Below, piece by piece: positions 1 through 22,348 of a DNA stretch of 43,398 nucleotides. Under the pieces are notes generated by a model that had not been told where the DNA came from, did not search any database, and saw only the letters and a list, made by a program, of their open reading frames with translations. The stretch comes from a virus. The position numbers and the translations under genes were made by a program. Position 1 is the first letter of the stretch; each line of letters opens with the position of its first letter. The DNA lies in IMG/VR virus record IMGVR_UViG_3300032144_000025, positions 1-43,398 of that record; one strand, written 5' to 3'.

Positions 1-127
1 TCCCTGGCGGCGGGCTGGTGCGGCAGTGCATCCAGCCGGCTGATGGTTACTGCTTTCTGGAGCGGGACTACTCCGGCGTGGAGCTTTGCACGTTCGCCGC
101 CGTCGCCGGGCGGTCCGTGGGCGACTG
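1..127. repeat. Terminal overlap: nt 1-127 are identical to nt 43272-43398. This is a circular-assembly overlap, not a biological terminal repeat.
   Basis: Direct comparison of the first and last lines of the window. The 127 nt lie inside the DNA polymerase reading frame, in the motif A region DYSGVELC. Confidence 0.95.
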
Positions 128-875
128 GTCGATGGCGAACACCATCAATGCCTCGGGCGACCCCGGCTTCATGCACGCCGTGTTGGGCGGCCACCTGCTG
201 GGAATCTCGCCGCAAGAGCTTCTGAAGCGCCGCAAGGCCGGCGACGACCTGGCCGAGAACGCGCGCACCCGCGCGAAGAACGCCAACTTCGGTTTCATCG
301 GGGGGTTGGGCTACCGTAAGTACGTGGATTACGTACGGATGTTGTCCAAGGGGAAAATCATCCTGACCCTGGAGGAGTCGAAGGCTCTGCGCGACGCCTG
401 GGCCGAGGCCGTGCCAGCAGGCCCGGCGTACCTGAAATTCGTCGGGTCGACCGAGCGTTTCGACGGGACGTACGAGGCCTACATAGACGGCGTTGAAATC
501 ACCCGCCGCGGCCTCTGGTACGCCGCGGCCGCGAACTGCCGTTTCCAAGGCCTGGCCGCGGGGATTATGCACGAGGCAGGCTGGCGCCTGGCCAAAGCGC
601 AGTACCTGCCAGGTGGCGCGCTGTACGGCGTGCGGACAGTCTCGTTCGTGCACGACGCTTTCATCCTGGAGGCGCGGGCGGATGATTCACTGCACGACGT
701 CGACGTCGTGTTCGAGCGGATTCTGCGCGAGGCCGCGGCGGAGGTGATGCCTGAAGTCATCACGAAGTCTGAAGGCCACGCGGCCTACTCGCTGGCTAAG
801 AAGGTCGACGGGCAGAAAGTATCCCGCGTCGAGAAAAACGGCCAGCTGGTTCCGTGGACGCCTAAGGCTACGTGA
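1..875 (+). CDS. Family A DNA polymerase, C-terminal part. It continues the ORF 42335..43398 across the circular junction.
   Basis: Frame is open from the window start. Motif A is [10 protein letters not shown], motif B is RTRAKNANFGFIGGLG and motif C is VSFVHDAFILE. Stop TGA at 873-875. The same frame as the 3'-open ORF at the window end once the 43,271-nt offset is applied. Confidence 0.9.
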   Translation, partial: PGGGLVRQCIQPADGYCFLERDYSGVELCTFAAVAGRSVGDWSMANTINASGDPGFMHAVLGGHLLGISPQELLKRRKAGDDLAENARTRAKNANFGFIGGLGYRKYVDYVRMLSKGKIILTLEESKALRDAWAEAVPAGPAYLKFVGSTERFDGTYEAYIDGVEITRRGLWYAAAANCRFQGLAAGIMHEAGWRLAKAQYLPGGALYGVRTVSFVHDAFILEARADDSLHDVDVVFERILREAAAEVMPEVITKSEGHAAYSLAKKVDGQKVSRVEKNGQLVPWTPKAT

Positions 876-913
876 GCTACGTTAAGTGTGCGGTCGAAAA
901 GGAGGCCGCTCGA

Positions 914-1462
914 ATGGACCAAAACCAGAAGAAAGACGCCGGCAAACCCCGTTGGGACCTGTTCCCGTTCGCTGACGTTTCCGTCACCGACCAGGACTAC
1001 CGCGTCCAAGACGTCTTCGACTCGTTGAAGCTCTGGTGGACCGGCCGTCCGTACGGCCTGGAGGTAGCCATCCCGGCCCGCCAGCTGCCGTACCTGGTGC
1101 GCGTGCTCTCGTTCGGCGCGGCGAAGTATTCGCCTCGCGGCTGGGAGGCAGGCATCCCCTTCAGCCGGGTGTTCGCGGCTGCGGCTCGCCACGCCTCGGC
1201 CCACCTCGCCGGCGAGTACCTCGACGAGGAGACCGGCCTGCCGCACGAGTCCCACCTCTGGTGCAACGTGCTGTTCCTGGTCGTCTTCTCCGCGCGCGGC
1301 CGAGAGGACCTGGACGACCGCCCGGAGCCATCGGCCGAGACGACGAAGGCGCTGGACCAAATGAAAGCGCTGATGGCTCAGCTTCAGGGCAAATTTCCCG
1401 TCGCCCGAGGCGAAGGCCTGGGCGACGGCGGCACGGGCGGCGGCGGGAAGGGAGCAAACTGA
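914..1462 (+). CDS. DUF5664-like (dATP/dGTP diphosphohydrolase N-domain-like) nucleotide pyrophosphohydrolase
   Basis: GKPRWDLFPF...VLSFGAAKYSPRGWEAGIPFSRVFAAAARHASAHLAGEYLDEETGLPHESHLWCNVLFL matches the family pattern recalled from memory. ATG 914 is preceded by AGGAGG at an 8-nt spacing. An in-frame GTG at 872 forms a GTGA overlap with the polymerase stop and is an alternative start. Confidence 0.55.
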   Translation: MDQNQKKDAGKPRWDLFPFADVSVTDQDYRVQDVFDSLKLWWTGRPYGLEVAIPARQLPYLVRVLSFGAAKYSPRGWEAGIPFSRVFAAAARHASAHLAGEYLDEETGLPHESHLWCNVLFLVVFSARGREDLDDRPEPSAETTKALDQMKALMAQLQGKFPVARGEGLGDGGTGGGGKGAN

Positions 1463-3033: not shown

Positions 3034-3749
3034 ACCTCGAACACGCGCCGATTGCCGCCGGGTCGCCCGACCAACAGGCGCGGTTCTGGTCTCACGTGAA
3101 GAAGACAGAAGGCTGTTGGCTTTGGACGGGGTCCCGCCTGAAGGGCGGGACCTGGTATGGCCAAGCAAAGATGCTCCCGTGGCGCGGGCTTGTAGCACAC
3201 CGCGTTTCCTGGGTTCTGCACAACGGGCCTATTGCGCCCGGGATGTTCGTGCTGCACACTTGTGACAATCCGGCATGCGTACGCCCGGACCGCCTCCGCC
3301 TCGGCACACAGTCCGAGAACATGAAAGAATCCTATGCCAAAAACCGCAAGCAGCCGTGGTCGCTCCGCTACACGCAAGATTGCGCTCATCCCAGATATAC
3401 ATGCGCCGAATCACGACAAGCGTGCGTGGCGGCTTGTCGTGAAAGCGCTGACCGCCTGGAAGCCAGACTTGATTATCCAGATGGGAGACCTGATAGACCT
3501 GGCCTCGGTGAGTACGTATGCGAAGCATCCGGCCAAGACCAAGTCGCTTGCGCAGGAAGTGGAGAGCGCTCGCGACATCGTGGACGACATCGCTGGAATT
3601 GGCGCGAAGGAAGTCGTTGTCACACTCGGAAATCACGATTCCAGAGCGTCCTCTTATCTGGTAGCGAACGCCCCAGACTTTCTACCGTTTTTCGATATCG
3701 ACAAAGTCCTGGGCCTACACCGCCCGGGCTGGACGGTGGTGCCTTATAA
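3030..3749 (+). CDS. HNH endonuclease (HNH_3-type, freestanding, homing-endonuclease-like). The conserved domain ends near nt 3350 but the frame stays open to 3749.
   Basis: EGCWLWTG...YGQAK...VAHRVSWVLHNGPIAPGMFVLHTCDNPACVRPDRLRLGTQSENMKES is paralogous to the 41985..42338 product. GTG 3030 gives a GTGA overlap with the upstream stop. There is no in-frame stop until 3747-3749. Confidence 0.65.
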   Translation: MNLEHAPIAAGSPDQQARFWSHVKKTEGCWLWTGSRLKGGTWYGQAKMLPWRGLVAHRVSWVLHNGPIAPGMFVLHTCDNPACVRPDRLRLGTQSENMKESYAKNRKQPWSLRYTQDCAHPRYTCAESRQACVAACRESADRLEARLDYPDGRPDRPGLGEYVCEASGQDQVACAGSGERSRHRGRHRWNWREGSRCHTRKSRFQSVLLSGSERPRLSTVFRYRQSPGPTPPGLDGGAL

Positions 3750-4104
3750 AGAGACCTACGAAATCGGACAGTTGCGTGTGACACACGACGTCGGCCGCGC
3801 CGGCGTACAGGCCGCCCGCCAGTCTGTGGTTGACGTCGGCGATAATATCGTTTTTGGGCACACCCACAGGATGCAAGTGTCGTACCAAGGCACTCAAGCA
3901 GGTAAGCGCCATGTAGGCGCGACGCTCGGCTGGTTGGGGGACAGCGAGCACATCGACTACAGGCACAAGGACATGGTCAAGAGAGACTGGCAGTTGGGCT
4001 TTGGTGTGGCTCACATGACGCCGGACGGCGCATTTTGGCTTCAGGCTATCCCTATCGTCGACTACCGCTGTATCATCGACGGGGTGGTGTATGTGCAGCG
4101 TTAA
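3334..4104 (+). CDS. Calcineurin-like metallophosphoesterase
   Basis: Motifs IPDIHAPNHD, MGDLIDL, LGNHD and GHTH in canonical order. An in-frame TGA at 3322 means ATG 3334 is the first possible start. Confidence 0.8.
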   Translation: MPKTASSRGRSATRKIALIPDIHAPNHDKRAWRLVVKALTAWKPDLIIQMGDLIDLASVSTYAKHPAKTKSLAQEVESARDIVDDIAGIGAKEVVVTLGNHDSRASSYLVANAPDFLPFFDIDKVLGLHRPGWTVVPYKETYEIGQLRVTHDVGRAGVQAARQSVVDVGDNIVFGHTHRMQVSYQGTQAGKRHVGATLGWLGDSEHIDYRHKDMVKRDWQLGFGVAHMTPDGAFWLQAIPIVDYRCIIDGVVYVQR

Positions 4105-5453
4105 CGCCGCCCGCCGCGCCCTCGCCGATTCCGCTGGACGTCAGCCAGCCGCTTGCGAATCTCCTGCTCCGGAGTCAGTGTCGGCTCCCACGAAGTCTGG
4201 AGACTGAAGCCTTGGCCCTGTAGCGCATACTGGAGCGCGTCGGTGCACTCGTCGACGTAGCCCTCTCGATGGTCATCCCGTTCCAGGTTCCAGGGCAGGC
4301 CGCGCCATTCCTCCAGTACCTGGCCGCAAGCCCCAAGCGTTCCCGTCAACGTGCGCGAATCGAGCATGCTCCGAACCTGCTCGATGCGCATCCGACGGGA
4401 GCGCTTGTCTGCGGCTGTAGCAGGCAGGCCGTACTGAGCGGCCAAGGTCTCCATCAACGTCCGTCCGCCGCCGCCGGCTGTGTCGACGAAGATTTCGGAG
4501 ACGTTGTGCTGCACGCGCATCCGCTCGGCGATGGCCGCGATTCGCGGTAGAGTCAGCTCTCGCTCTCGGTACGTTTCGACGATGTGGGCCCCGGGCTGGC
4601 CCTCGCGAGCACGCACCACGCAGAACCCGGCGCCGTCGTCCCACCCGATGTCGAGGCCCAGGGTGGTGTACTGCGTCGGCCGAGGCGTCGGCTCGTAGAA
4701 CTGGTCGAGCGGCGGGATGCGGTAAATCAGCACGCCCTCGTCCCGCACGCGGTGGCCGAGGTACTCGCGTCGGTAGGTCAGGTTCGTCGCGTCGCCCGCG
4801 AACCGCTCGGCCAAGGCCTCGGCCAGCAGCTCCGCGCCGGGCCGCGCGAGGTGCGGGTTGTCCGCCATCGTGTCGGCGAAGTGGGCCCCGCGGGCCTCAC
4901 ATCGCGCCATCATGTCCTCGTAGAACCCGAGGCCGGTGTCGGACGGCGTGCCGGTCAAGGCCAGGTCGCCGTCGGTGTCCGCCAGCGCGGGCTCGATGAC
5001 GTCGCGCACGGCGTACTCCAGCAGTGCGTCCGGAATCTGGCCACACTCGTCGAGCGCCACGCGGTGGATTTTCGGGATGCCGCGGATGTGGTTGACCTGG
5101 CGTCGGTCCTTCAGCCCGACCAGGTAGACGGTGAAGCCGTTCGGGAACGTCCACGCCGCGTCCAGGGTGTTGTAGGTCGCACCCCACTGCAGGGTGCGGT
5201 TCAGGTAGTCCAGCGCGTCCCAAATGATACGGACCGCGTGCTCGGTCGTGAGTGCACCGAAGATAGACGATTGTCCCGGGCGGTGGGCCCATTCTTCCGT
5301 CAGCCAGACGCCCACGGCGAAGGTCTTGCCCGTCCGGCGGCCCGAGCAATTCGTTCGGAACTTAGCGATTTTACTGACGAATCGAATCTGGTGTGGGGCG
5401 AGCAGTCGGCGCGCCGGCGGGATTTTCAGCAGCTTCGTGAGCGGGGCTAGCAC
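4101..5453 (-). CDS. terL: Terminase large subunit
   Basis: Walker A-like CSGRRTGKTFAVG and Walker B-like RVALDECGQI. C-terminal RNase H-like nuclease acidic motifs LGLDIGWDDG and IFVDTAGGG. 450 aa, divergent from the portal gene. GTG start. Confidence 0.85.
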   Translation of the reverse strand: MLAPLTKLLKIPPARRLLAPHQIRFVSKIAKFRTNCSGRRTGKTFAVGVWLTEEWAHRPGQSSIFGALTTEHAVRIIWDALDYLNRTLQWGATYNTLDAAWTFPNGFTVYLVGLKDRRQVNHIRGIPKIHRVALDECGQIPDALLEYAVRDVIEPALADTDGDLALTGTPSDTGLGFYEDMMARCEARGAHFADTMADNPHLARPGAELLAEALAERFAGDATNLTYRREYLGHRVRDEGVLIYRIPPLDQFYEPTPRPTQYTTLGLDIGWDDGAGFCVVRAREGQPGAHIVETYRERELTLPRIAAIAERMRVQHNVSEIFVDTAGGGGRTLMETLAAQYGLPATAADKRSRRMRIEQVRSMLDSRTLTGTLGACGQVLEEWRGLPWNLERDDHREGYVDECTDALQYALQGQGFSLQTSWEPTLTPEQEIRKRLADVQRNRRGRGGRR

Positions 5454-9320: not shown

Positions 9321-9789
9321 CGTAGAGCCGGCAGGCCCGCGCCTGACCCCGGAACTAGCCCGGAACCTGCTCGGCGGCGCGCAGACCGGGCTTTTCCGCG
9401 GAGCCGTCGCGGAGTCGGTCGGCCTGAACCCCGACGTGCTGGACACCTGGCTCACGATGGGTCTGTCGTCCGGCGCGGTGGAGCCCTACCGCTCGTTCGC
9501 GCTGGCTTACCGCGCGGCCGAGCAGAAGGCGCAATTGCCCTACATCGCAGCCCTCCAGGCCGCCGCAACGGTGGATTGGAAGGCTGCGCTCGCGTGGCTC
9601 GCGGCCCGGTATCCCGAACAATGGGGCGCCAAGGCCACGAAGAACACGCAGGCCGGGGCGCTGCTCCCCTCGGCTGGCGACGAGCAGGCCGACGAGGCCA
9701 TGGTCGACCAGCTGCTAGAGACGATGCCGCCGGCCCTCCAGCGCGCCCTCGCGCGCCGGGGTATCAAGGTCCCGCCGGTCGGCGGTTAA
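9298..9789 (+). CDS. Putative DNA-binding / small terminase-like protein
   Basis: The motif DWKAALAWLAARYPEQWG resembles the W+A..W.LERR.PE.WG signature that I recall from phage small-terminase/HTH proteins. ATG 9298 is used, with TTG 9286 as an alternative. Confidence 0.3.
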   Translation: MPSSLSSDVEPAGPRLTPELARNLLGGAQTGLFRGAVAESVGLNPDVLDTWLTMGLSSGAVEPYRSFALAYRAAEQKAQLPYIAALQAAATVDWKAALAWLAARYPEQWGAKATKNTQAGALLPSAGDEQADEAMVDQLLETMPPALQRALARRGIKVPPVGG

Positions 9790-12700
9790 GCCGTCCGGTA
9801 CGGCGCCGGCGCCTGGACAGCCGCCGCGGTCTGGCTCACGCCGGGCCGCGGCCCGGCTCCCGCCTTCGGGGGGGCTGCCTCCGCGGCCTGCTGGAAGGCC
9901 AGGTTGGCCATCTGGACGGCCGTCGAAGAGAACGCCGGGTCGGCCAGGGCGCCGTCCCCATCGAACAGCCTGGCGTACGTGGTGCGCGCCTGGACGGTCG
10001 GGTGGGGCGTCTCGCGGATGGCCTGGTAGGCCTCGACCCGCACCTCGGCCAGCAGGTCGGGGTACAGCGTCTGGAGGGTCTCCAGCAGCTCGGGCGACAG
10101 GTACCCGACCTGCGCCGCCTCGCGCAGCGCGTCACGAGGGCGGAGGGCCGCCTGTTCGTATCGGGCATACTTGGCCGCAGCCTCGGACGACACCGGCGCG
10201 CCCGAGAGCCCGACGGGCGTCGGTTTGGAGGACTGCGGGAGCTTCTCGCGGAGGAAGGACGCCGCCGCGAACACGCCCTGGGCCGCCTTCGCGAAGGCCT
10301 CTGGCGGGGCTTCAGAGAGCCCTTCAGCCACCCGGTCGACCAGCTCCTGGGGGTTGGCCTGCCAAGCCTGGAACTCCTCCTGGCGCGCCGCGAGCTGCGA
10401 CCGCGAGTAGGCCAGTCGGGCGACCGTCTTCAGCGTCGCCTCCGGCGCCGCCGCAAACAGCGCTCGCGCCACCGACTTGACCAGCCGGCCTCGGCCGGCC
10501 TTCAGCAGCGACGCCGCCGCAGCGAAACCACCCACCGGCGCGGCGGAGGCTGCGGCCGCGTCCGGCTCGGACCCGTCGGCCTGGGCCGCGCCGGTCGCTG
10601 CCGCGCCGACGCCGACCGCCGCCGGGATGGTCAGGTGGCCGTAGTCGCCAAACACGAGCTTGCGGTTGTTCGGTCCCTGCTCGAAAACGAACGTAAACCC
10701 GTCTTTTTCCGGGTCGTAATATTCGGCGACCTTGCGGAACTGCCCACCGGCCGGCAGCACCATCTCGTGCTCCCCGGGGTTGATTCCGTACAGCCCGCCC
10801 GCGCGGTCGACCTTGCGGAAAACGAGGCGGGTGTTCCCGAAATTCGGGTCGGGCTGGTAGCCGGTGCTGGACGGAGCGGACATCACATAGTCGTCACGCG
10901 AGAGCAGCTCAGCGATGGCGCGCTCGTCCAGGTCGATGTAGCGGAACAACGGCCCGTGCTCGGTAGGGTTTTTCACCTCCAGCGCTTTGAGGGCCTCCGG
11001 AAACAGGCGGGCTTTTTCGATTACACCTTGGTCGTCTATCCAGTGCGGGCCTACGCCAGTCTGCTCGACGGTGCGCGCAGTGTGCGACGACCCTATCCAA
11101 TCCTGAACAGCTTCTTTCAGCTCGTCCGGAAGCTCCTCGTAGCGCTTGGCCGTATCCAGCCGGACCTGGTTCAAACCCTCCGGCAGACCGAACGGGTTGG
11201 CGTCTGACGTCAGGCCTTTAACCTTGTTCTGTAGCGGAGTCGACCCGCCGTACACGTCTACGTCCAGCTCGGGTGGAGGTGCCTCCAGCAGCTCCTTCGA
11301 ATCGTCGACCAGGCGGTTGGCGACGTTAGGCTGGTTTTTGAACATAGCGCCGAGCTTGTAGCTCGCGCCCAGCTGGGTGCGCAGGTCTTGCGCGCGGCCC
11401 GTCGTCATCCTTCGATGGAAATCCTCCAGGAGGTCCAGGCGCTTGACCAGCAGGTCACCTAGCTCTGGTGGCGCCGTGGCCGCGATGTTTTCCAGCTGGC
11501 CGCGGTGCTCTAACAGCTGCTTCAGAGAGCCCAGCAGCCGCTCGGGGCCGTCGTAGCCGGCGCGCTTGAGCACCGCGGCGTAATTCGGATTCACCTTTCG
11601 GTCGAAAAACCCTGTGATTTCGGACAAGTCCCCCAAAACCTCGGCCGACTTCTGGTCACCCATCGCGCGGAACATCAGAGACGAGCCGTTGTCGACGCGC
11701 ACAGGCCGACCGTTGCGGAAGATGACGTTGTCGAAGTCCTGGCCCAGAACGTCCCAATTCGCCAGCAGTACGTCCCCCCAGAAACCTCGGGCCAGCTCCT
11801 GGGCCTGGTCGGTGTACAAGTCTTCGGGCTGTAAGCCACGCTCCAGCTCGTCCTCGGGCAGCATCTTGGCCATGTGCAGCGCGCGGCCGTCGGGCATGTC
11901 CTTCACTACGGATTCGACCGCGGCGTCTTCGCCGAGGAAAGTGCGGTACACTTCATTCCCCACGGCCTCGGCTTGAGCCTGGCGAGGGTCGTCGTAGACC
12001 TTGGCGTACCAGTCCTCCCCCCCAGGCGAGCGGAACACTCCTCCTTCGTTCGAGCCTGCCTGCGGCCCGACGCGCTCCCAACCCTCCCCTAGGGCTTCTT
12101 CCACCGTAGCCGGGCCGGCGTCGGCCGGGCGCGGCTCGGGCGCGGCCGACGCCGGCGGAAGCTCCGTCGGCGACGACGCGCGCTCCGCTCGGTCCGCCGC
12201 CAGGGCCAGTTCGTCCTCGACCATCTGGTCCAGGTTCTCCTCCAGGTCGTCCGCGAAGCGCGTGGCCAGCTCGTCGTCCGGCGCGGCCGCGCGGATGGAC
12301 TCCAGCACGCCTCGCGCCTGGGCCTCCAGCTCTGCGCGGAGCGCCTCCAGCTTCGGTGCCTGCGCGCGGTCGAACATTCCCGCCTCGGCCACCGGCTCGG
12401 TCTCCAGCAGTTCGGCCTGGCCTCGGCTGACCTCGCGTTCCCCGACGAAACGAGTGGGGCGCTCGGCCGGCGGGAGTGACCGCGACTCCGGGGCTACAGA
12501 CGGACCCAGCTCGTCCACCCCGGTCGGGCGCGCGGGGGCGTCGGAGAAAATCCCGACGTCCAGCTCCTCCGGACCTTCCGACGGGCCGACGCTGGGGCGC
12601 GCGGTGCCTGGCGGGGCGGAGCCTGGGCCGACGTCGATTTGGCCTTGCGGCTTGATGGCGTACGCGCCGGCCGGGACGCGCGCGTTGTCCAGGCGCGTCG

Positions 12701-14639
12701 GGCCGACGCCCGGCAGCGCCTCCGGGCCGGGCGGCAGGTTCTCGCCCACCTCGCGGAACGGCAGCATTCCGACGCCGGGGGCCGGGGGCGGCACGGACGC
12801 CGGGCCGAACGGGCTACGTGGGGAGGGTGTGGTCAGGTCGTCCAGCAGCGACTGGACGGAGCGGTCGGCGCCGGCCGCGCCGGGCAGCTCGCCCTTCGCC
12901 AGCAGCTTGGCCATCGACTTGGCTTCGCCGGCGCCCCAGCCCAGCCGTTGGGCCGCGCGGAACACCCAGTCGCCGGCCCTAGCACCTCGCAGCGCGCCGA
13001 AGGCGGCCGCGCCGGCAAACGGACCCGCGGCCGCACCGGCCGCCACGCCGCCGGCCACCTCGGCGCCCAGCTCGACGGCCTTCGACCGCTCGCTGGTCCG
13101 ACGGGCCGCCTGCGCGATGTACTCGGCGTTCGCGACGGCTTTCCGCAGCCGGCGGACCCTTTCGAGGGTGTCTCGCGCCGCTTTCGGGGCGTCGGCCTCG
13201 CCGGAGCGCGCGATGGCTTCGACGCCGTCCAGGTAGTCCCGGAACTGCTCGGCCAGGCGCGAACCATCGACATCGTTCACGTTTCGGGAGAAAAACGCCC
13301 GGACCTTGGCCGGGTCGCCCTGGAAAACGTCGAAGCCTCGCTCATTTTTGTACGGCGAGAACATCAGCTTTCCCTTGACCGTCTTCTCGGTCGGGAAATA
13401 CTTCTCGTGGAACGGCGTGTTGTAGGCCGCCTGAGCCTCGGCCGCCGCACGGCCCCACGCATCCTCGCGCAGGAGCGCCTCGCGCGTCTGACGCTCGGCG
13501 GCGTCCACCGCGGCCAGACCGTCGCGCGACAGCCACGCCGCGCCGGGGTTGTTCTCATAGGCCTGGTGTAGGTCCTGCTGGAACTCCTGGAGGGCCTGGC
13601 GGTTTTCGTCCAGCGTCCGCCACAGCCGGCGACCCGTACGGTACGGGTCCTCCAGCTGCGCGATGCGGTCGTCGATTTGCTTCAGCAGCGACCGGGCCGC
13701 GCCCGACGGCGCGTCGCCGACTTCGGCCGACACGGCGTCGCGGAGCTGCTGTAGGCCTGCGTGCGCCTCGATGCGGATGGGTGCTTGCGTCTCGGGTGCG
13801 TCTTCGACCACCTTGGAGATACGCGCGCGCTTGCGGTCCTGGCGCGAGACCTCCTCGAAAGAGACCTGCAGGTCGTCCAGGTCGCGGGCCGCGAGGTCCG
13901 CCAGCTCGTTCTGGTACTGCTCCGCGTGGTGCGCGACACGGAAGTCGTTCAGCCACCCACCCTTCGTGAGGGCGTCGTCGACGTCGTCGGCAATCGCCTC
14001 GCGCTCTGCCTTGGCCAGGAGGTTGCGGGTCCCGCCGACCGCGCGCGAGACAGCCCAGCCGGCGCCTCGGCCGATGGCCTCGCCGGCCAGGCCGGCCACG
14101 GCGGCGTCCGTCCAGCTGAAGTCGTCCGCCGCGAGGCGCGTCTGCTCGGCCTCGGTCTGCGCGCCGCCGAGCGCGGACTGGGCCACGAAGTCCGCCGCGC
14201 GCACGCCCAGCTGGGCCGCGCGGCCGAGCTTCGCAGCCGCGCCGGCCGCCACAGCCGCCTCGCCGAGAGCGCCGCTCGCGACGGCCAGGGGGAGCTGGCC
14301 GGCCACTTCGTAGGCGAAGGCCTCGCCCGGGTGCTCCTCTTGGAAACGCAAACCGCGGGCGCGCGCCTCGGGGGAGTCCAGCCCGGGGAGCAGGCCGAAC
14401 GTCGCCGCGGAATAGAGCTTCTCCTTCGCGGCCTCGGACTCGTAGCCCTCGGGCGCGGTCAACAGGCCCTGGGTGACGGCCTCCTGGTCACCGAGAGCGC
14501 CGATTTCGCCCTGCTGCACGGCCTGGCGACCCGCCTCGTCCACGGGCTGAAAGCCCTGGTCGAGCGCGAGCTGCTGCTGAGAGTCGTCGATGACGACGAC
14601 TTCGCCGGTCTTTGGGTCTCGGACGTAAAGGTCTGCCAT
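9786..14639 (-). CDS. Giant virion/ejection protein (1617 aa) carrying a kinase-like domain and an ADP-ribosyltransferase domain
   Basis: Last gene of the virion operon. Ala/Gly-rich hydrophobic segments resemble those of ejection proteins. Enzymatic cores are listed as separate features below. Confidence 0.8.
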   Translation of the reverse strand: MADLYVRDPKTGEVVVIDDSQQQLALDQGFQPVDEAGRQAVQQGEIGALGDQEAVTQGLLTAPEGYESEAAKEKLYSAATFGLLPGLDSPEARARGLRFQEEHPGEAFAYEVAGQLPLAVASGALGEAAVAAGAAAKLGRAAQLGVRAADFVAQSALGGAQTEAEQTRLAADDFSWTDAAVAGLAGEAIGRGAGWAVSRAVGGTRNLLAKAEREAIADDVDDALTKGGWLNDFRVAHHAEQYQNELADLAARDLDDLQVSFEEVSRQDRKRARISKVVEDAPETQAPIRIEAHAGLQQLRDAVSAEVGDAPSGAARSLLKQIDDRIAQLEDPYRTGRRLWRTLDENRQALQEFQQDLHQAYENNPGAAWLSRDGLAAVDAAERQTREALLREDAWGRAAAEAQAAYNTPFHEKYFPTEKTVKGKLMFSPYKNERGFDVFQGDPAKVRAFFSRNVNDVDGSRLAEQFRDYLDGVEAIARSGEADAPKAARDTLERVRRLRKAVANAEYIAQAARRTSERSKAVELGAEVAGGVAAGAAAGPFAGAAAFGALRGARAGDWVFRAAQRLGWGAGEAKSMAKLLAKGELPGAAGADRSVQSLLDDLTTPSPRSPFGPASVPPPAPGVGMLPFREVGENLPPGPEALPGVGPTRLDNARVPAGAYAIKPQGQIDVGPGSAPPGTARPSVGPSEGPEELDVGIFSDAPARPTGVDELGPSVAPESRSLPPAERPTRFVGEREVSRGQAELLETEPVAEAGMFDRAQAPKLEALRAELEAQARGVLESIRAAAPDDELATRFADDLEENLDQMVEDELALAADRAERASSPTELPPASAAPEPRPADAGPATVEEALGEGWERVGPQAGSNEGGVFRSPGGEDWYAKVYDDPRQAQAEAVGNEVYRTFLGEDAAVESVVKDMPDGRALHMAKMLPEDELERGLQPEDLYTDQAQELARGFWGDVLLANWDVLGQDFDNVIFRNGRPVRVDNGSSLMFRAMGDQKSAEVLGDLSEITGFFDRKVNPNYAAVLKRAGYDGPERLLGSLKQLLEHRGQLENIAATAPPELGDLLVKRLDLLEDFHRRMTTGRAQDLRTQLGASYKLGAMFKNQPNVANRLVDDSKELLEAPPPELDVDVYGGSTPLQNKVKGLTSDANPFGLPEGLNQVRLDTAKRYEELPDELKEAVQDWIGSSHTARTVEQTGVGPHWIDDQGVIEKARLFPEALKALEVKNPTEHGPLFRYIDLDERAIAELLSRDDYVMSAPSSTGYQPDPNFGNTRLVFRKVDRAGGLYGINPGEHEMVLPAGGQFRKVAEYYDPEKDGFTFVFEQGPNNRKLVFGDYGHLTIPAAVGVGAAATGAAQADGSEPDAAAASAAPVGGFAAAASLLKAGRGRLVKSVARALFAAAPEATLKTVARLAYSRSQLAARQEEFQAWQANPQELVDRVAEGLSEAPPEAFAKAAQGVFAAASFLREKLPQSSKPTPVGLSGAPVSSEAAAKYARYEQAALRPRDALREAAQVGYLSPELLETLQTLYPDLLAEVRVEAYQAIRETPHPTVQARTTYARLFDGDGALADPAFSSTAVQMANLAFQQAAEAAPPKAGAGPRPGVSQTAAAVQAPAPYRTA
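10640..11140 (-). other. ADP-ribosyltransferase (R-S-ExE) domain within the giant protein
   Basis: PLFRY (Arg codon at 10941-10943), MSAPSSTG (about 10863-10886) and NPGEHEMVLPAGGQF (E-H-E at 10765-10773). Order and spacing are comparable to SpvB/iota/C3-type toxins and T4 Alt. Confidence 0.65.
11400..12080 (-). other. Protein-kinase-like / PI3K-PI4K-like catalytic core within the giant protein
   Basis: Gly-rich loop GPQAGSNEGGVF, Lys in WYAKVY and Glu in AEAVGNEVY. Catalytic-loop-like ANWDVLGQDFDNVIF and metal-loop-like VRVDNGSSLMF (compare DRHxxN...IDFG). Confidence 0.45.
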
Positions 14640-14642
14640 GGG

Positions 14643-15065
14643 TCAGGGCTGCTTTTTCTGCCAAGCGTCATAGCGCTTGTGCATGTTTCGGCCGTACTGG
14701 GCCTCGTCTGCGGTGTAGTAGCCCGCGGCTTTCAGCGCGCGGTTATAGGCGTCCAGGTCGCCCTGGTCGGCGACGTCCAGGAGGCCCTTGCGGTCCAGAT
14801 ACTCGATGTAGGTCTGTAGACCTTCGTCGAGCGTCTCGTGGGCCAAGAACGGCTCGCGGCGGTCGACGCGCTTTCCGTTCTCCATTTCCCACGTCTTCAG
14901 GGTCTGGTACTTGACCCCTTCGCGGTCGGGCGCTTTCATATTCCCGACGTTGTAGCCGTAGGAGTATTTCCCGTCGGCCGTCTCCAACGCGATTTGCGCG
15001 GCCAAGATGTCCGCCGCCGGGCCGTCGCCCAGCTTCTGCCGCAGCGTGGAGCGGACTTCGTCCAT
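14643..15065 (-). CDS. Virion-associated peptidoglycan hydrolase (FlgJ-type glucosaminidase-like)
   Basis: ILAAQIALETADGKYSYGYNVGNMKAP...YQTLKTWEMENGKRV...FLAHETLDEGLQTYIEYL resembles the glucosaminidase pattern AQA.LESGWG...N.FGIK...T.E...G...F..Y.s. ATG 15065 follows the upstream stop directly. The Arg-rich N-terminal extension in the ORF track (to 15617) is rejected. Confidence 0.55.
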   Translation of the reverse strand: MDEVRSTLRQKLGDGPAADILAAQIALETADGKYSYGYNVGNMKAPDREGVKYQTLKTWEMENGKRVDRREPFLAHETLDEGLQTYIEYLDRKGLLDVADQGDLDAYNRALKAAGYYTADEAQYGRNMHKRYDAWQKKQP

Positions 15066-15067
15066 GT

Positions 15068-16963
15068 TCAGCGGGGTGCGCCGGGCTTCAACTCGCGTAG
15101 CCTTCGATAGGTCCCGCGTAGGGAGCCCGTCGTTGAGGTATCCGGCACCTGCCCCGCGGGGGACGTCGGAGCCGGGGGTAAAGGGCCCGGCGCGGCGCCT
15201 CCCGCACCTTCGGGGCCGGGCGCGGCGCCGGGAGCCGTCTGGCCGGTCCGGCGCTTGATTTGCAGCTGCTCTCCGCCGCGCGCGTCCTGGAGGTTCTGGT
15301 CGGAGCGCGCGTGCTGGCGGAGCAAGTCGAGGTAGCGCCTCGCGTTGCCGCCGGCCACGCCGGTCGCCGTCGTGACGGTTCGTTGCTCGGCCTCCTGGGC
15401 CTTCTGGGCCAGGGCCGCGAGCGTGGTGCTCGACTCGCCGGAGTCCATGATAGCGTTGAAGTTTTTGCCCTCGTTCTCCGAATCGATGGACTTGATGTTC
15501 ACCGTCTGCTTGAACGCGAGCTTGGCCTCTTCGATGAGCTGCTTCGTGTTGACCTGCTCCTTCGCGTTCTGGATACCCAGCCGCGCAGCCACGCCGGCCA
15601 GGCCGAGGGATTCCCACGACGCCGGGGTCTTGGCTTGCAGCACGCCGCCGTTCCGCGCGGCGATGGTCTTCAACGCCTCGTTCACGGCCTTCAGACGCTC
15701 GGCGCCCACGACGACGTCGCCGAGCTTGTCCTCGGTCATGGCCTTGTCGTGGCGCTTGCGGTCGACGCCCAACGACTTCAGCGCAACGTCGAATCGCGTC
15801 TGCGGTCCGGTGCCGGGGGTAGCGCGCTCCTCTTCCTGGACGCGCCGAGAGACCTGCTCGGACACGCGCGAGCCGATGGCGTTCTGCCGCTCGGCGACTT
15901 GCATCGCCTGCTGCGCTTTGTAGGTCTCCAGGCCGGGCGGGGGCTGAAGGCCGGCGCGCTGGGCCTCCAGGTCTATTTTCTTGTTGACGATGCCGGACAG
16001 CTGTGCCCGGATGGTGTCCTCGGTGTTTTTGGCGTCGCCCATCAGGCGCTCGCGCGAGCGATACGTCGAATCGCGCTGGGCCTGCTGGATGCGGACGTAG
16101 CGGTCCTGGGCCTGGTTCAGCGCCTGGACCATCTGGTTCAGCGCTGGGTTTTGGCCCTTCGTGGCGCCCTGGAGGAAGCCCGAGAGCGCGAGCGCGACCC
16201 AGGCGCCGGCCGTGCGGCCCGGCGAGCTGGTCCAGAACTCGTCTTCGTCGAGCGGGGTCTTCTCCATTGCTTGGATGACCCGCTGGTGCTCCGCGCGCTC
16301 CAGCGCGGCCTGGCGCGCCTGGCGCTGCAGCTCGCGCTCTTGCGCGTCGCGTGCGTCCAGCTCGGTGTCGAGGACGTCCGCGCGGCCGCGGTACGCCATC
16401 GTGTCTTTCAGGTGCGCGGCCTGGGCCTCTTCGTCCTGGGCAGACGACAGCCGCGCTGCCATCACGTCCGGGTCGTCGACCGTCCGCGTCTGCGTGACGT
16501 CTTGCGACTCGGTTTGGGAGTACGGCGCGAAGCCGCCGGGCGCGCCCGGGGCCACCACCTCGCCGTAGTCGACCGTGGGCTGGCCGGTGGCCGTGCCGGG
16601 GAGCGCGCCAGGCACCAGCGCCGGCGGAGGCGCGACCGCGGCGGCCTGCTGCTCGGCCGCGAGCTGGTCAGGGGTCAGCGAAGCGTCCAGGCCGGAGCCC
16701 GAGACGTCGAAGCCTACCGGCTCGGCGCCGGGCGGCGGGGCGGGCGGGGCGACCGGAGGCCCGAACGCGGCGCCGGCGGCGTAGTTCGGTCCAGGCGCGG
16801 CTGGCGTCTGCGGTAGGGCCTCGGCCGTACCCTTCGGCAACGTCGACGTGCGTCCGTCCGAGAACGACACTTCGACCCAGCCGGGGTTGGCCGGGTCTTC
16901 GACCATCCCGTCGACGGTGGCGTCGGGCGGCAGGTCGGCATACAGCTCGTCTTCGGGACCCAT
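15068..16963 (-). CDS. Internal virion / ejection protein (putative), coiled-coil rich
   Basis: 631 aa with a Pro/Ala-rich N-terminal third followed by long Q/A/R/E helical stretches. It lies between the fibre-like gene and the PG hydrolase. No enzymatic motif. Confidence 0.4.
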   Translation of the reverse strand: MGPEDELYADLPPDATVDGMVEDPANPGWVEVSFSDGRTSTLPKGTAEALPQTPAAPGPNYAAGAAFGPPVAPPAPPPGAEPVGFDVSGSGLDASLTPDQLAAEQQAAAVAPPPALVPGALPGTATGQPTVDYGEVVAPGAPGGFAPYSQTESQDVTQTRTVDDPDVMAARLSSAQDEEAQAAHLKDTMAYRGRADVLDTELDARDAQERELQRQARQAALERAEHQRVIQAMEKTPLDEDEFWTSSPGRTAGAWVALALSGFLQGATKGQNPALNQMVQALNQAQDRYVRIQQAQRDSTYRSRERLMGDAKNTEDTIRAQLSGIVNKKIDLEAQRAGLQPPPGLETYKAQQAMQVAERQNAIGSRVSEQVSRRVQEEERATPGTGPQTRFDVALKSLGVDRKRHDKAMTEDKLGDVVVGAERLKAVNEALKTIAARNGGVLQAKTPASWESLGLAGVAARLGIQNAKEQVNTKQLIEEAKLAFKQTVNIKSIDSENEGKNFNAIMDSGESSTTLAALAQKAQEAEQRTVTTATGVAGGNARRYLDLLRQHARSDQNLQDARGGEQLQIKRRTGQTAPGAAPGPEGAGGAAPGPLPPAPTSPAGQVPDTSTTGSLRGTYRRLRELKPGAPR

Positions 16964-21764: not shown

Positions 21765-22292
21765 TCAGTTTTCATCCTTCGTGGCGCCGAACAGGCGGAA
21801 CGACATAGCGGGCGTCACGTCGGTGAATTGGACCTTTTCCACCGCGACACCCCATCGCTTGGCCGCGGTCGTCACGGCCGTCCTGACGCGCCGCAACACG
21901 GCACCGGAGTAGACCGCCTCGGCCGTCGCCTTCGCCACGGCGGAGCCCAGCGCGCCGGCGGCGACGTCCTGCACGTTGTTCGTGGCGTCGAAGACGTTCA
22001 GGACGAACTGCTCCGGGTCCGCTACGTGGTACGACACCATCAGGCGCAGCACCAGGTCGACGCCGTCCTTCGTGCGAAGGGACTGGGCCGGTAGGACGTC
22101 GGCCCACAACCGCATATCGACGTGGGTGGATGTTTCGATGGCGAACGGCCACACGAAATTCAAGCCTGGCTTTAGTTTCCTGACGGGAATGCCGAAACGA
22201 CGCACGAAGCCTGCGTTCTCGGCCTTGCACACGGTCCAGAACTGGAACAGTTCCAGGATGGACGTCAGAAACTCGAAGAGTTTTTCAAACAT
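21765..22292 (-). CDS. SPFH / band-7 (stomatin-prohibitin-like) domain protein
   Basis: Hydrophobic N-terminus MFEKLFEFLTSILELFQFW. Then ENAGFVRRFGIPVRKLKPGLNFVWPFAIETSTHVDMRLW...PAQSLRTKDGVDLVLRLMVSYHVADPEQF, typical of SPFH. ATG 22292 has a GAGGA 8 nt upstream. Confidence 0.7.
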   Translation of the reverse strand: MFEKLFEFLTSILELFQFWTVCKAENAGFVRRFGIPVRKLKPGLNFVWPFAIETSTHVDMRLWADVLPAQSLRTKDGVDLVLRLMVSYHVADPEQFVLNVFDATNNVQDVAAGALGSAVAKATAEAVYSGAVLRRVRTAVTTAAKRWGVAVEKVQFTDVTPAMSFRLFGATKDEN

Positions 22293-22348
22293 GGGCTGGT
22301 TCCTCAAACCTAACACTCGGCCGGCCCGGACGCCAGGTCAGGCGTAAA

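Follow-up and report, generated by a model that had tools for sequence, protein, structure and literature searches.

A phage carrier protein with an exchangeable central cassette that here pairs a kinase-like domain with a predicted ADP-ribosyltransferase

Why would a phage place two enzyme-like cores in the middle of one very long protein encoded among its virion genes? The question is raised by a 1617-aa open reading frame (ORF) in IMG/VR virus record IMGVR_UViG_3300032144_000025, all 43,398 nucleotides of which (the window) were analyzed here. A sequence-only reading of this DNA had proposed that the protein unites a kinase-like core and an R-S-ExE ADP-ribosyltransferase (ART) core and may deliver both activities into the host. 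We found that the ORF is intact, that its center yields two enzyme folds with conserved catalytic residues, that the region holding them is exchanged between related phages with breakpoints visible in the DNA, and that the same pair of domains recurs in other phage proteins. We read the protein as a large virion carrier, probably leaving the particle with the DNA, whose conserved ends hold a recombination-exchanged effector cassette, in this case a kinase-like (KL) domain followed by an ART, and we assign this reading a probability of about 0.62. The carrier is laid out as follows, in order of translation.

9786-14639, minus strand: carrier ORF, 1617 aa, intact with an ATG start, 1617 codons and a stop; the terminal gene of a minus-strand virion block
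12834-14639, minus strand: conserved N module, aa 1-602, aligning in essentially all 55 homologues at 42-90% identity, with 78-85% DNA identity to relatives
12567-12833, minus strand: hypervariable Pro/Ala-rich linker, aa 603-691, 15% Pro; even contig L018, a relative that shares the cassette and is 83-85% identical, has no DNA similarity in this stretch
12135-12566, minus strand: conserved pre-cassette segment, aa 692-835, ending at the left breakpoint; similarity to two other relatives (contigs L016/L017) resumes at 12563/12564 and stops at 12115/12150
11355-12134, minus strand: atypical protein-kinase-like (KL) domain, aa 836-1095, predicted from AlphaFold2 (AF2), Foldseek and residue conservation
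11181-11354, minus strand: inter-domain linker, aa 1096-1153; in the ART model, residues 1130-1147 have a predicted local distance difference test score (pLDDT) <50, and helical structure first appears at aa 1154
10635-11180, minus strand: R-S-ExE mono-ADP-ribosyltransferase domain, aa 1154-1335, predicted from AF2, Foldseek, hhalign and residue conservation
10497-10634, minus strand: post-cassette Ala/Gly-rich hydrophobic stretches, aa 1336-1381, with the right breakpoint inside; similarity to L016/L017 resumes at 10589/10562
9789-10496, minus strand: conserved C module, aa 1382-1617, aligning in nearly all homologues at 42-95% identity

The third-position GC of the ORF is 0.86, typical for coding sequence in this 68% GC genome, and a check of codon positions placed every motif quoted in the sequence-only reading where it had been located. 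For the KL domain, an AF2 model of residues 836-1095 built from the family alignment (pLDDT 88.3, predicted template modeling score 0.87) gave a kinase-type order of elements, with strands 1-3 carrying a Gly-rich loop and a Lys, helix C carrying a Glu, a hinge, helix E, the catalytic loop, two short strands, the metal-binding Asp, and then a helical C-terminal subdomain. Its best PDB match by Foldseek was H. pylori CtkA (E 8e-6, template modeling (TM) score 0.52), followed by CK1, Myt1, AAK1, and APH(3'); kinase-fold proteins made up essentially the whole top 50, and the BFVD matches beyond homologues were viral Ser/Thr and PI3K/PI4K kinases. The G-loop reads GPQAGSNEGGVF (aa 858-869), and the remaining motifs are K880 in WYAKVY, E891, NWD963...DN971, and R981-V-D983-NG, with an Asp-to-Asn spacing of 8 residues, not 5. 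Across 175 KL sequences, K880, E891, D956, N961, D963, N971, R981, and D983 are 99-100% conserved, and G862/G866/G867, K880, E891, D963, N971, and D983 (95-100%) lie on the expected secondary-structure elements. By modeled fold and ATP-site residues, KL is a member of the protein-kinase-like (PKL) superfamily.

The ART model (AF2, residues 1130-1345) has a pLDDT of 80.4. Foldseek matched it best to C3bot1 (E 2e-8, TM about 0.6), and all of the top 50 PDB matches were R-S-E ADP-ribosyltransferases, including C3bot1/2, Tre1, Vis, Certhrax, HopU1, and iota-like toxins. The motifs R1233 (in PLFRY), S1258 (in SSTG), and E1290-H-E1292 supply an R, an S, and an ExE that are invariant in 15 family members; in 124 ART domains, R1233 is 98% conserved, S1258 93%, and E1290 and E1292 98% each. 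The window protein itself matched neither Pfam ADPrib_exo_Tox (PF03496) nor ART (PF01129). hhalign and iterated hidden Markov model (HMM) searches linked its ART indirectly to Pfam-positive ARTs, and a profile of the window type aligned with the Pfam-positive ART of Pseudomonas phage Jeremy at an hhalign E of 4e-6, with R, STS, and ExE in register. Homologues of this half of the pair also include the MuF-fused VIP2-like ARTs that many actinophages carry, along with Alt-like proteins. Its modeled fold is of the C3/VIP2-type R-S-ExE kind. In characterized R-S-E ARTs, the ExE ADP-ribosylating toxin turn-turn (ARTT) motif accompanies arginine specificity, and the activity here would be arginine-specific mono-ADP-ribosylation.

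Both domain calls of the sequence-only reading were borne out by these results: structure prediction with Foldseek returned the expected kinase-like and ART folds, and the proposed catalytic residues proved 93-100% conserved among the 175 KL and 124 ART homologues. The profile searches that it had suggested went the other way, with no Pfam match for KL or ART (including Pkinase, HipA_C, PI3_PI4_kinase, and APH) even at E <= 1; KL likewise had no match in NCBIfam or PHROGs and none by PDB sequence-profile search. When the PDB was searched by sequence, both the single protein and the KL, ART, and whole-family profiles drew spurious matches only (for example, ribosomal protein L9 at E 0.001). Querying a word index for homologues with KL on its own was uninformative, since it recovered no sequence at all, the parent protein included.

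The central cassette is swapped between related phages by recombination. A homologue search with the carrier yielded 55 full-length homologues of 976-1695 aa, many on ~43-45 kb metagenomic contigs, and a BLAST map of these showed aa 1-~600 and ~1380-1617 to be conserved in essentially all, with a variable center. The centers fall into the following types.

KL and ART: 10 members, window included
ART alone: 8 members
ART in a truncated protein: 1 member
Second KL type alone: 5 members
Second KL type after a possible ParB-like segment (motif only): 1 member
ART followed by the second KL type: 1 member
GNAT-like (Pfam Acetyltransf_10, sub-threshold; one named GNAT by the Joint Genome Institute): 28 members
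Winged-helix-like only: 1 member

Part of the P0003 cassette is called ParB-like for a DGNHR motif only, unconfirmed by Pfam. Comparison at the DNA level placed the junctions. The contig carrying the ParB-like segment with the second KL type (L016) is 83-89% identical to the window over the neighbor genes and both end modules, with no similarity between 12115 and 10589 (aa 842-1351). A GNAT-type contig (L017) is 69-78% identical in the flanks and breaks at 12150 and 10562, and a relative with KL and ART (L018) is collinear with the window across the cassette and both breakpoints. With flanks put at 78-86% DNA identity, the relatives that carry another cassette have no similarity at all from aa ~830/842 to ~1351/1360. 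Hypervariability of the Pro-rich linker (aa 603-691) extends to all three.

Ala/Gly-rich stretches occur at aa 112-136 (nt 14232-14306), 528-550 (nt 12990-13058), 1336-1354, and 1360-1381, with a Kyte-Doolittle peak of about 1.5, and a comparable hydrophobic stretch terminates every cassette type. The earlier description of such stretches flanking both cores is right for the ART, which two of them directly follow, and only loosely true overall because the nearest N-terminal stretch lies ~285 residues before KL. Relatives also carry an Endonuclease_7 gene at differing positions (L018 8728-9105, L020 225-593; one immediately after the carrier gene), by appearance a mobile nuclease gene that could stimulate recombination nearby.

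A second variable spot appears to lie immediately upstream of the carrier gene: region 15214-14643, around the glucosaminidase-like gene, has no DNA similarity in L016 and L018, relatives that are otherwise 81-89% identical, and in both of these the upstream gene extends right up to the carrier gene.

The KL-ART pair extends well beyond this phage lineage. Searched against 1.84 billion representative proteins (clusters at 50% identity), the KL profile matched 4,919 at E <= 1e-3, of which 3,918 also passed E <= 1e-10. Among the best 145 of the 4,919, 99 have an ART downstream of KL according to an iterated ART profile, and 3 have one upstream only; in most paired proteins the domains directly adjoin each other. 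At least 26 of the ART-less proteins in this set stop within 100 residues of KL and may be truncated; an ART is present in 99/119 (about 83%) of those not cut off right after the domain. Of ten sampled KL proteins, nine bear Pfam ADPrib_exo_Tox or ART on the C-terminal side of KL, with six exceeding the curated cut-off, and no Pfam model covers KL in any of the ten. Where KL lacks an ART, the protein has NUDIX immediately N-terminal to KL, or else it contains MuF, an intein, or inorganic pyrophosphatase. Judged from these profile matches, KL-then-ART is a widespread fixed-order pair in phage-type proteins, numbering in the thousands.

Sequenced phages carry it too. A tblastn search of GenBank phages with the carrier matched in the KL region only, in large proteins of unrelated phages: Pseudomonas phages Jeremy, Dolphis, and Touem01, Aeromonas phage ST4, Yersinia phage fHe-Yen8-01, Escherichia phage ECML-606-1, Morganella phage Mecenats66, Gordonia phages, and Actinomycetia phage DSL-LC01. 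The 1213-aa protein of Jeremy has KL at ~aa 640-800 and a C-terminal Pfam ADPrib_exo_Tox domain. KL homologues in BFVD are named ADP-ribosyltransferase, include one fused to an HK97-type portal, and include Gordonia phage proteins; in Gordonia phage Phendrix, the KL protein comes after the portal gene. The KL-ART proteins of Jeremy, Dolphis, ST4, fHe-Yen8-01, and ECML-606-1 resemble the carrier in having KL, at 31-37% identity, followed by an R-S-ExE ART. They differ from it in their unrelated N-terminal parts, in the C-terminal placement of the pair, and in belonging to ~90 kb phages, and they are mostly annotated as ADP-ribosyltransferase or hypothetical protein.

Two side observations concern these proteins. 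The gene two positions downstream of KL-ART is a "nucleotide phosphatase" in Jeremy (L001 6233-7081) and a NUDIX hydrolase in ST4 (L003 6247-7002), and the gene at the same position in fHe-Yen8-01 (L004 6218-7036) is annotated only as particle-associated. Many stand-alone KL-ART proteins start with GPKGGQYWxTSTGLKIYVG-type repeats (e.g., P0081 aa 1-70), with a weak Pfam PBCV_basic_adap match, which may be a packaging or adaptor motif.

Four lines of evidence suggest that the carrier is a virion or ejected protein. It terminates a block with a tail fiber and a cell-wall hydrolase that is syntenic in relatives; the KL-ART protein of fHe-Yen8-01 and its neighbors are annotated "phage particle associated protein"; KL proteins neighbor portal and MuF head proteins or form fusions with them; and ARTs of this kind are head-packaged (PMC5512222, PMC9503650). 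In the mechanism that we propose, the N and C modules would anchor the carrier in the particle, perhaps in an envelope-spanning conduit, and the central cassette would enter the cytoplasm along with the DNA. There the ART would mono-ADP-ribosylate host proteins using NAD+ and KL would transfer phosphate from ATP to host proteins, either for takeover of the cell or for disarming host defenses.

Host RNA polymerase, which the sequence-only reading had favored as the target, is a candidate by analogy with T4 Alt and T7 gp0.7 only. Its premise that the phage has no RNA polymerase of its own is consistent with our scan: no T7-type enzyme is encoded, because only two ORFs exceed 800 aa and neither has an RNA-polymerase domain match. 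It had further speculated that a metallophosphoesterase might counteract the kinase. The ORF at 3334-4104 does match Pfam Metallophos, but an equivalent gene occupies the same backbone position, beside the terminase, in a relative whose GNAT-like cassette is kinase-free; the gene therefore has no specific link to the kinase, and we rejected this candidate as unsupported.

Several observations weigh against reading the protein as a virion carrier of effectors. For the carrier itself, we infer packaging and ejection by analogy. Its N and C modules have no match in Pfam, PHROGs, NCBIfam, or the PDB, its hydrophobic stretches are only moderately hydrophobic, and a homology to T7 gp16 was tried and rejected (hhalign of the 55-sequence profile against gp16, probability 0.2%). 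KL and ART of the window fall below all Pfam, NCBIfam, and PHROG thresholds, so their assignments depend on structure prediction and on bridging between profiles. In KL, the catalytic loop is atypical (NWD-x7-N vs HRD-x4-N), and kinase folds can catalyze other reactions, for example AMPylation or glutamylation; a kinase is therefore not assured, and phosphotransfer is the most likely predicted chemistry of KL rather than the sole one. Finally, KL and ART keep a fixed order at close spacing, which suggests that they are coupled instead of acting as two independent effectors.

That last point leads to a possible but rather doubtful alternative, in which KL and ART form one coupled machine, with KL either regulating the ART in cis or contributing to a composite modification by phosphorylating the ADP-ribosylated product or a substrate that the ART then modifies. 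A precedent exists in Legionella, where the kinase-fold enzyme SidJ controls the ART domain of SidE. The strict order (99 KL-then-ART vs 3 reversed, the domains abutting in most) speaks for such coupling, as does an asymmetric dependence, in which about 83% (99/119) of intact KL proteins have an ART and ARTs often occur without KL (MuF-ART fusions, Alt). So do other partners of KL in the NAD/ADP-ribose network, namely NUDIX fused N-terminal to KL and the NUDIX gene two downstream in Jeremy and ST4. The carrier family itself argues otherwise, since its members include five with the second KL type without ART, eight with ART without KL, and one with ART then KL. A bolder version, which we hold to be slightly more doubtful still, would make KL-ART a single two-step enzyme of an as yet undescribed kind, in which KL either alters the ADP-ribose or the residue written by the ART to leave a composite mark (e.g., phospho-ADP-ribose resisting host erasers), or switches the ART on only once delivery has taken place, with the carrier slot serving as a general recombination-driven delivery site.

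The remaining explanations fare worse. A polymorphic cassette between conserved flanks is a hallmark of polymorphic toxins (PMC5576092; PMC3482391), and the interbacterial toxin Tre1 is among the nearest solved ART structures, so the cassette might be a toxin that, like the MuF polymorphic ones, is aimed at rival bacteria or at superinfecting phages and not at taking over the infected host. We consider this unlikely: no candidate immunity gene lies beside the cassette, where the next gene is convergent and kept across cassette types, the cassette is internal rather than C-terminal, and the 43 kb genome is lytic-looking, with its own DNA polymerase and helicase. Nor do we favor a purely structural, ruler-like protein whose domains act on the envelope or are inactive relics and never reach the cytoplasm, which seems very improbable even for a long, Ala/Gly-rich, partly hydrophobic protein. 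Tape-measure proteins can bear embedded enzymatic motifs, but this gene is terminal in its operon, after the tail fiber and hydrolase, not between tail chaperones and distal tail genes, and the 93-100% conservation of catalytic residues argues for active enzymes needing cytoplasmic NAD+ and ATP. That the motifs are chance resemblances without any enzyme domain would agree with the lack of a direct match in Pfam, PHROGs, NCBIfam, or PDB sequences. The high-confidence models, the Foldseek top 50 (essentially all kinase-fold for KL, all ART for ART), and the family-wide retention of the motifs refute this as far as computation allows, leaving it next to no probability.

How does the effector carrier compare with known systems? 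Virion-delivered polyvalent effector proteins are already known as a general kind. Polyvalent proteins of phages and conjugative elements, as defined by Iyer, Burroughs, Anand, de Souza, and Aravind in 2017, combine ARTs, kinases, GNATs, and ParB and are predicted to be injected (PMC5512222). The carrier shares with them its size and multidomain character, its location among virion genes, its recombinational variability, and a similar domain set (ART, KL, GNAT-like, and a possible ParB-like motif); with two enzyme domains, a variable architecture, and linkage to virion genes, it has the architectural traits of the class. Packaging and injection, which also belong to the class, would follow by analogy with the particle-associated annotation in fHe-Yen8-01. 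The ARTs described there are of H-Y-D type, and Alt/VIP2 R-S-E ARTs are stated to be absent from genuine polyvalent proteins (PMC5512222). Their kinases lack a C-terminal subdomain and have a His...Asp pair, whereas KL has a helical C-terminal subdomain and NWD...N. A carrier with central cargo between N and C modules, the KL family, and the KL-ART pair are not in that paper (PMC5512222), nor in a 2022 survey of viral NAD/ADP-ribose proteins (PMC9503650) or the MuF toxin paper (PMC5576092). The assertion that such a combination was undescribed was thus too strong in that the concept had been published and the pair already sits in GenBank phages; the kinase-ART pair itself appeared in no publication found by a literature search of limited coverage, and a description may exist elsewhere.

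T4 Alt is a virion-packaged R-S-E ART delivered with DNA (PMC5512222, PMC9503650), without a swappable-cassette carrier. We found no KL domain within a T4-type Alt, that of Acinetobacter phage Ac42. Alt, a head protein of ~70 kDa, modifies host RNA polymerase. The MuF-fused VIP2-like ARTs and MuF toxins (PMC5576092, PMC9503650) share with the carrier a head-associated carrier with a variable effector and a homologous ART, and some KL proteins carry MuF; the window protein differs in having no MuF (no PF04233 match), a central variable part, and no adjacent immunity gene. The T7 gp14-gp16 region is comparable in that a run of large-protein genes with a cell-wall hydrolase activity closes the virion block, but no sequence similarity links the carrier with gp16. 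The T7 hydrolase resides within gp16 as one of its domains, and the kinase gp0.7 is expressed from an early gene and is not part of the virion. CtkA and other minimal or atypical kinases have the same bilobal kinase-like fold (TM 0.52), yet identity is 11-14%, there is no Pfam kinase-profile match, and the catalytic-loop spacing is different. T7 gp0.7 itself is a phage kinase that modifies many host proteins, and a phage kinase can broadly disarm bacterial defenses (PMC13645617), which makes a putative virion-delivered kinase-plus-ART module directly relevant.

What is new is the KL family, the KL-ART pair, and exchangeable central cargo. KL is a large kinase-fold family, about 4,900 clusters at 50% identity, without a model in Pfam, NCBIfam, or PHROGs, and the majority of its members occur in phage particle proteins as fixed-order fusions with an Arg-type ART, suggesting a common and unstudied tool of early infection. 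The polyvalent-protein concept is extended to R-S-E ARTs and to mid-protein cargo. Closely related phages that differ in their cassette (KL and ART, ART, KL type 2, GNAT-like) also constitute a natural experiment through which the roles of the modules in host range and counter-defense are separable. Cassette exchange and the wide distribution of KL-then-ART both go beyond the sequence-only reading, and an abundant uncatalogued KL family tied to ARTs, together with the exchange, is in our view more interesting than its claim of two activities on one polypeptide.

The gene context was as the earlier description had it, with the carrier terminal in a virion block after glucosaminidase-like and 631-aa genes according to gene calls and Pfam/PHROG matches. 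Independent gene calls give the order upstream of the carrier as SPFH/Band7, a 1006-aa protein, the tail fiber, and the 631-aa and 140-aa glucosaminidase-like proteins; the tail-fiber gene bears a Peptidase_S74 chaperone domain, and the 3' neighbor of the carrier ORF is a convergent plus-strand gene. The two nearest upstream genes are listed here.

14643-15065, minus strand: 140-aa glucosaminidase-like cell-wall hydrolase (Pfam Glucosaminidase E 3e-5, under the curated cut-off; endolysin PHROG E 2e-10), syntenic in relatives
15068-16963, minus strand: 631-aa protein without a database match, from a gene call, syntenic in relatives

The genome encodes its own DNA polymerase and helicase and resembles a lytic-type 43 kb phage. 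Its large terminase (Terminase_6N/6C; 4101-5453, minus strand) had no tblastn match at E 1e-5 in ~50,700 GenBank phage records, and a contig scan found no carrier relatives in GTDB species genomes; the records of this lineage are therefore all metagenomic, 7 IMG/VR loci among them.

The DNA polymerase A gene (18-875, plus strand) is interrupted by the window start, so the contig is probably a circularly permuted complete genome of ~43.4 kb. Adjoining it is a 196-aa protein (872-1462, plus strand) that matches Pfam dGTP_diPhyd_N (dATP/dGTP diphosphohydrolase) at E 2.5e-21 and is kept in a relative. Enzymes of this type go with modified-base (2-aminoadenine) genomes; a scan of window ORFs, which was not exhaustive, found no PurZ-like gene. 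Within the virion block, an SPFH/Band7-family protein (21765-22316, minus strand; Pfam E 3e-21) is kept in relatives and is unusual for a structural operon.

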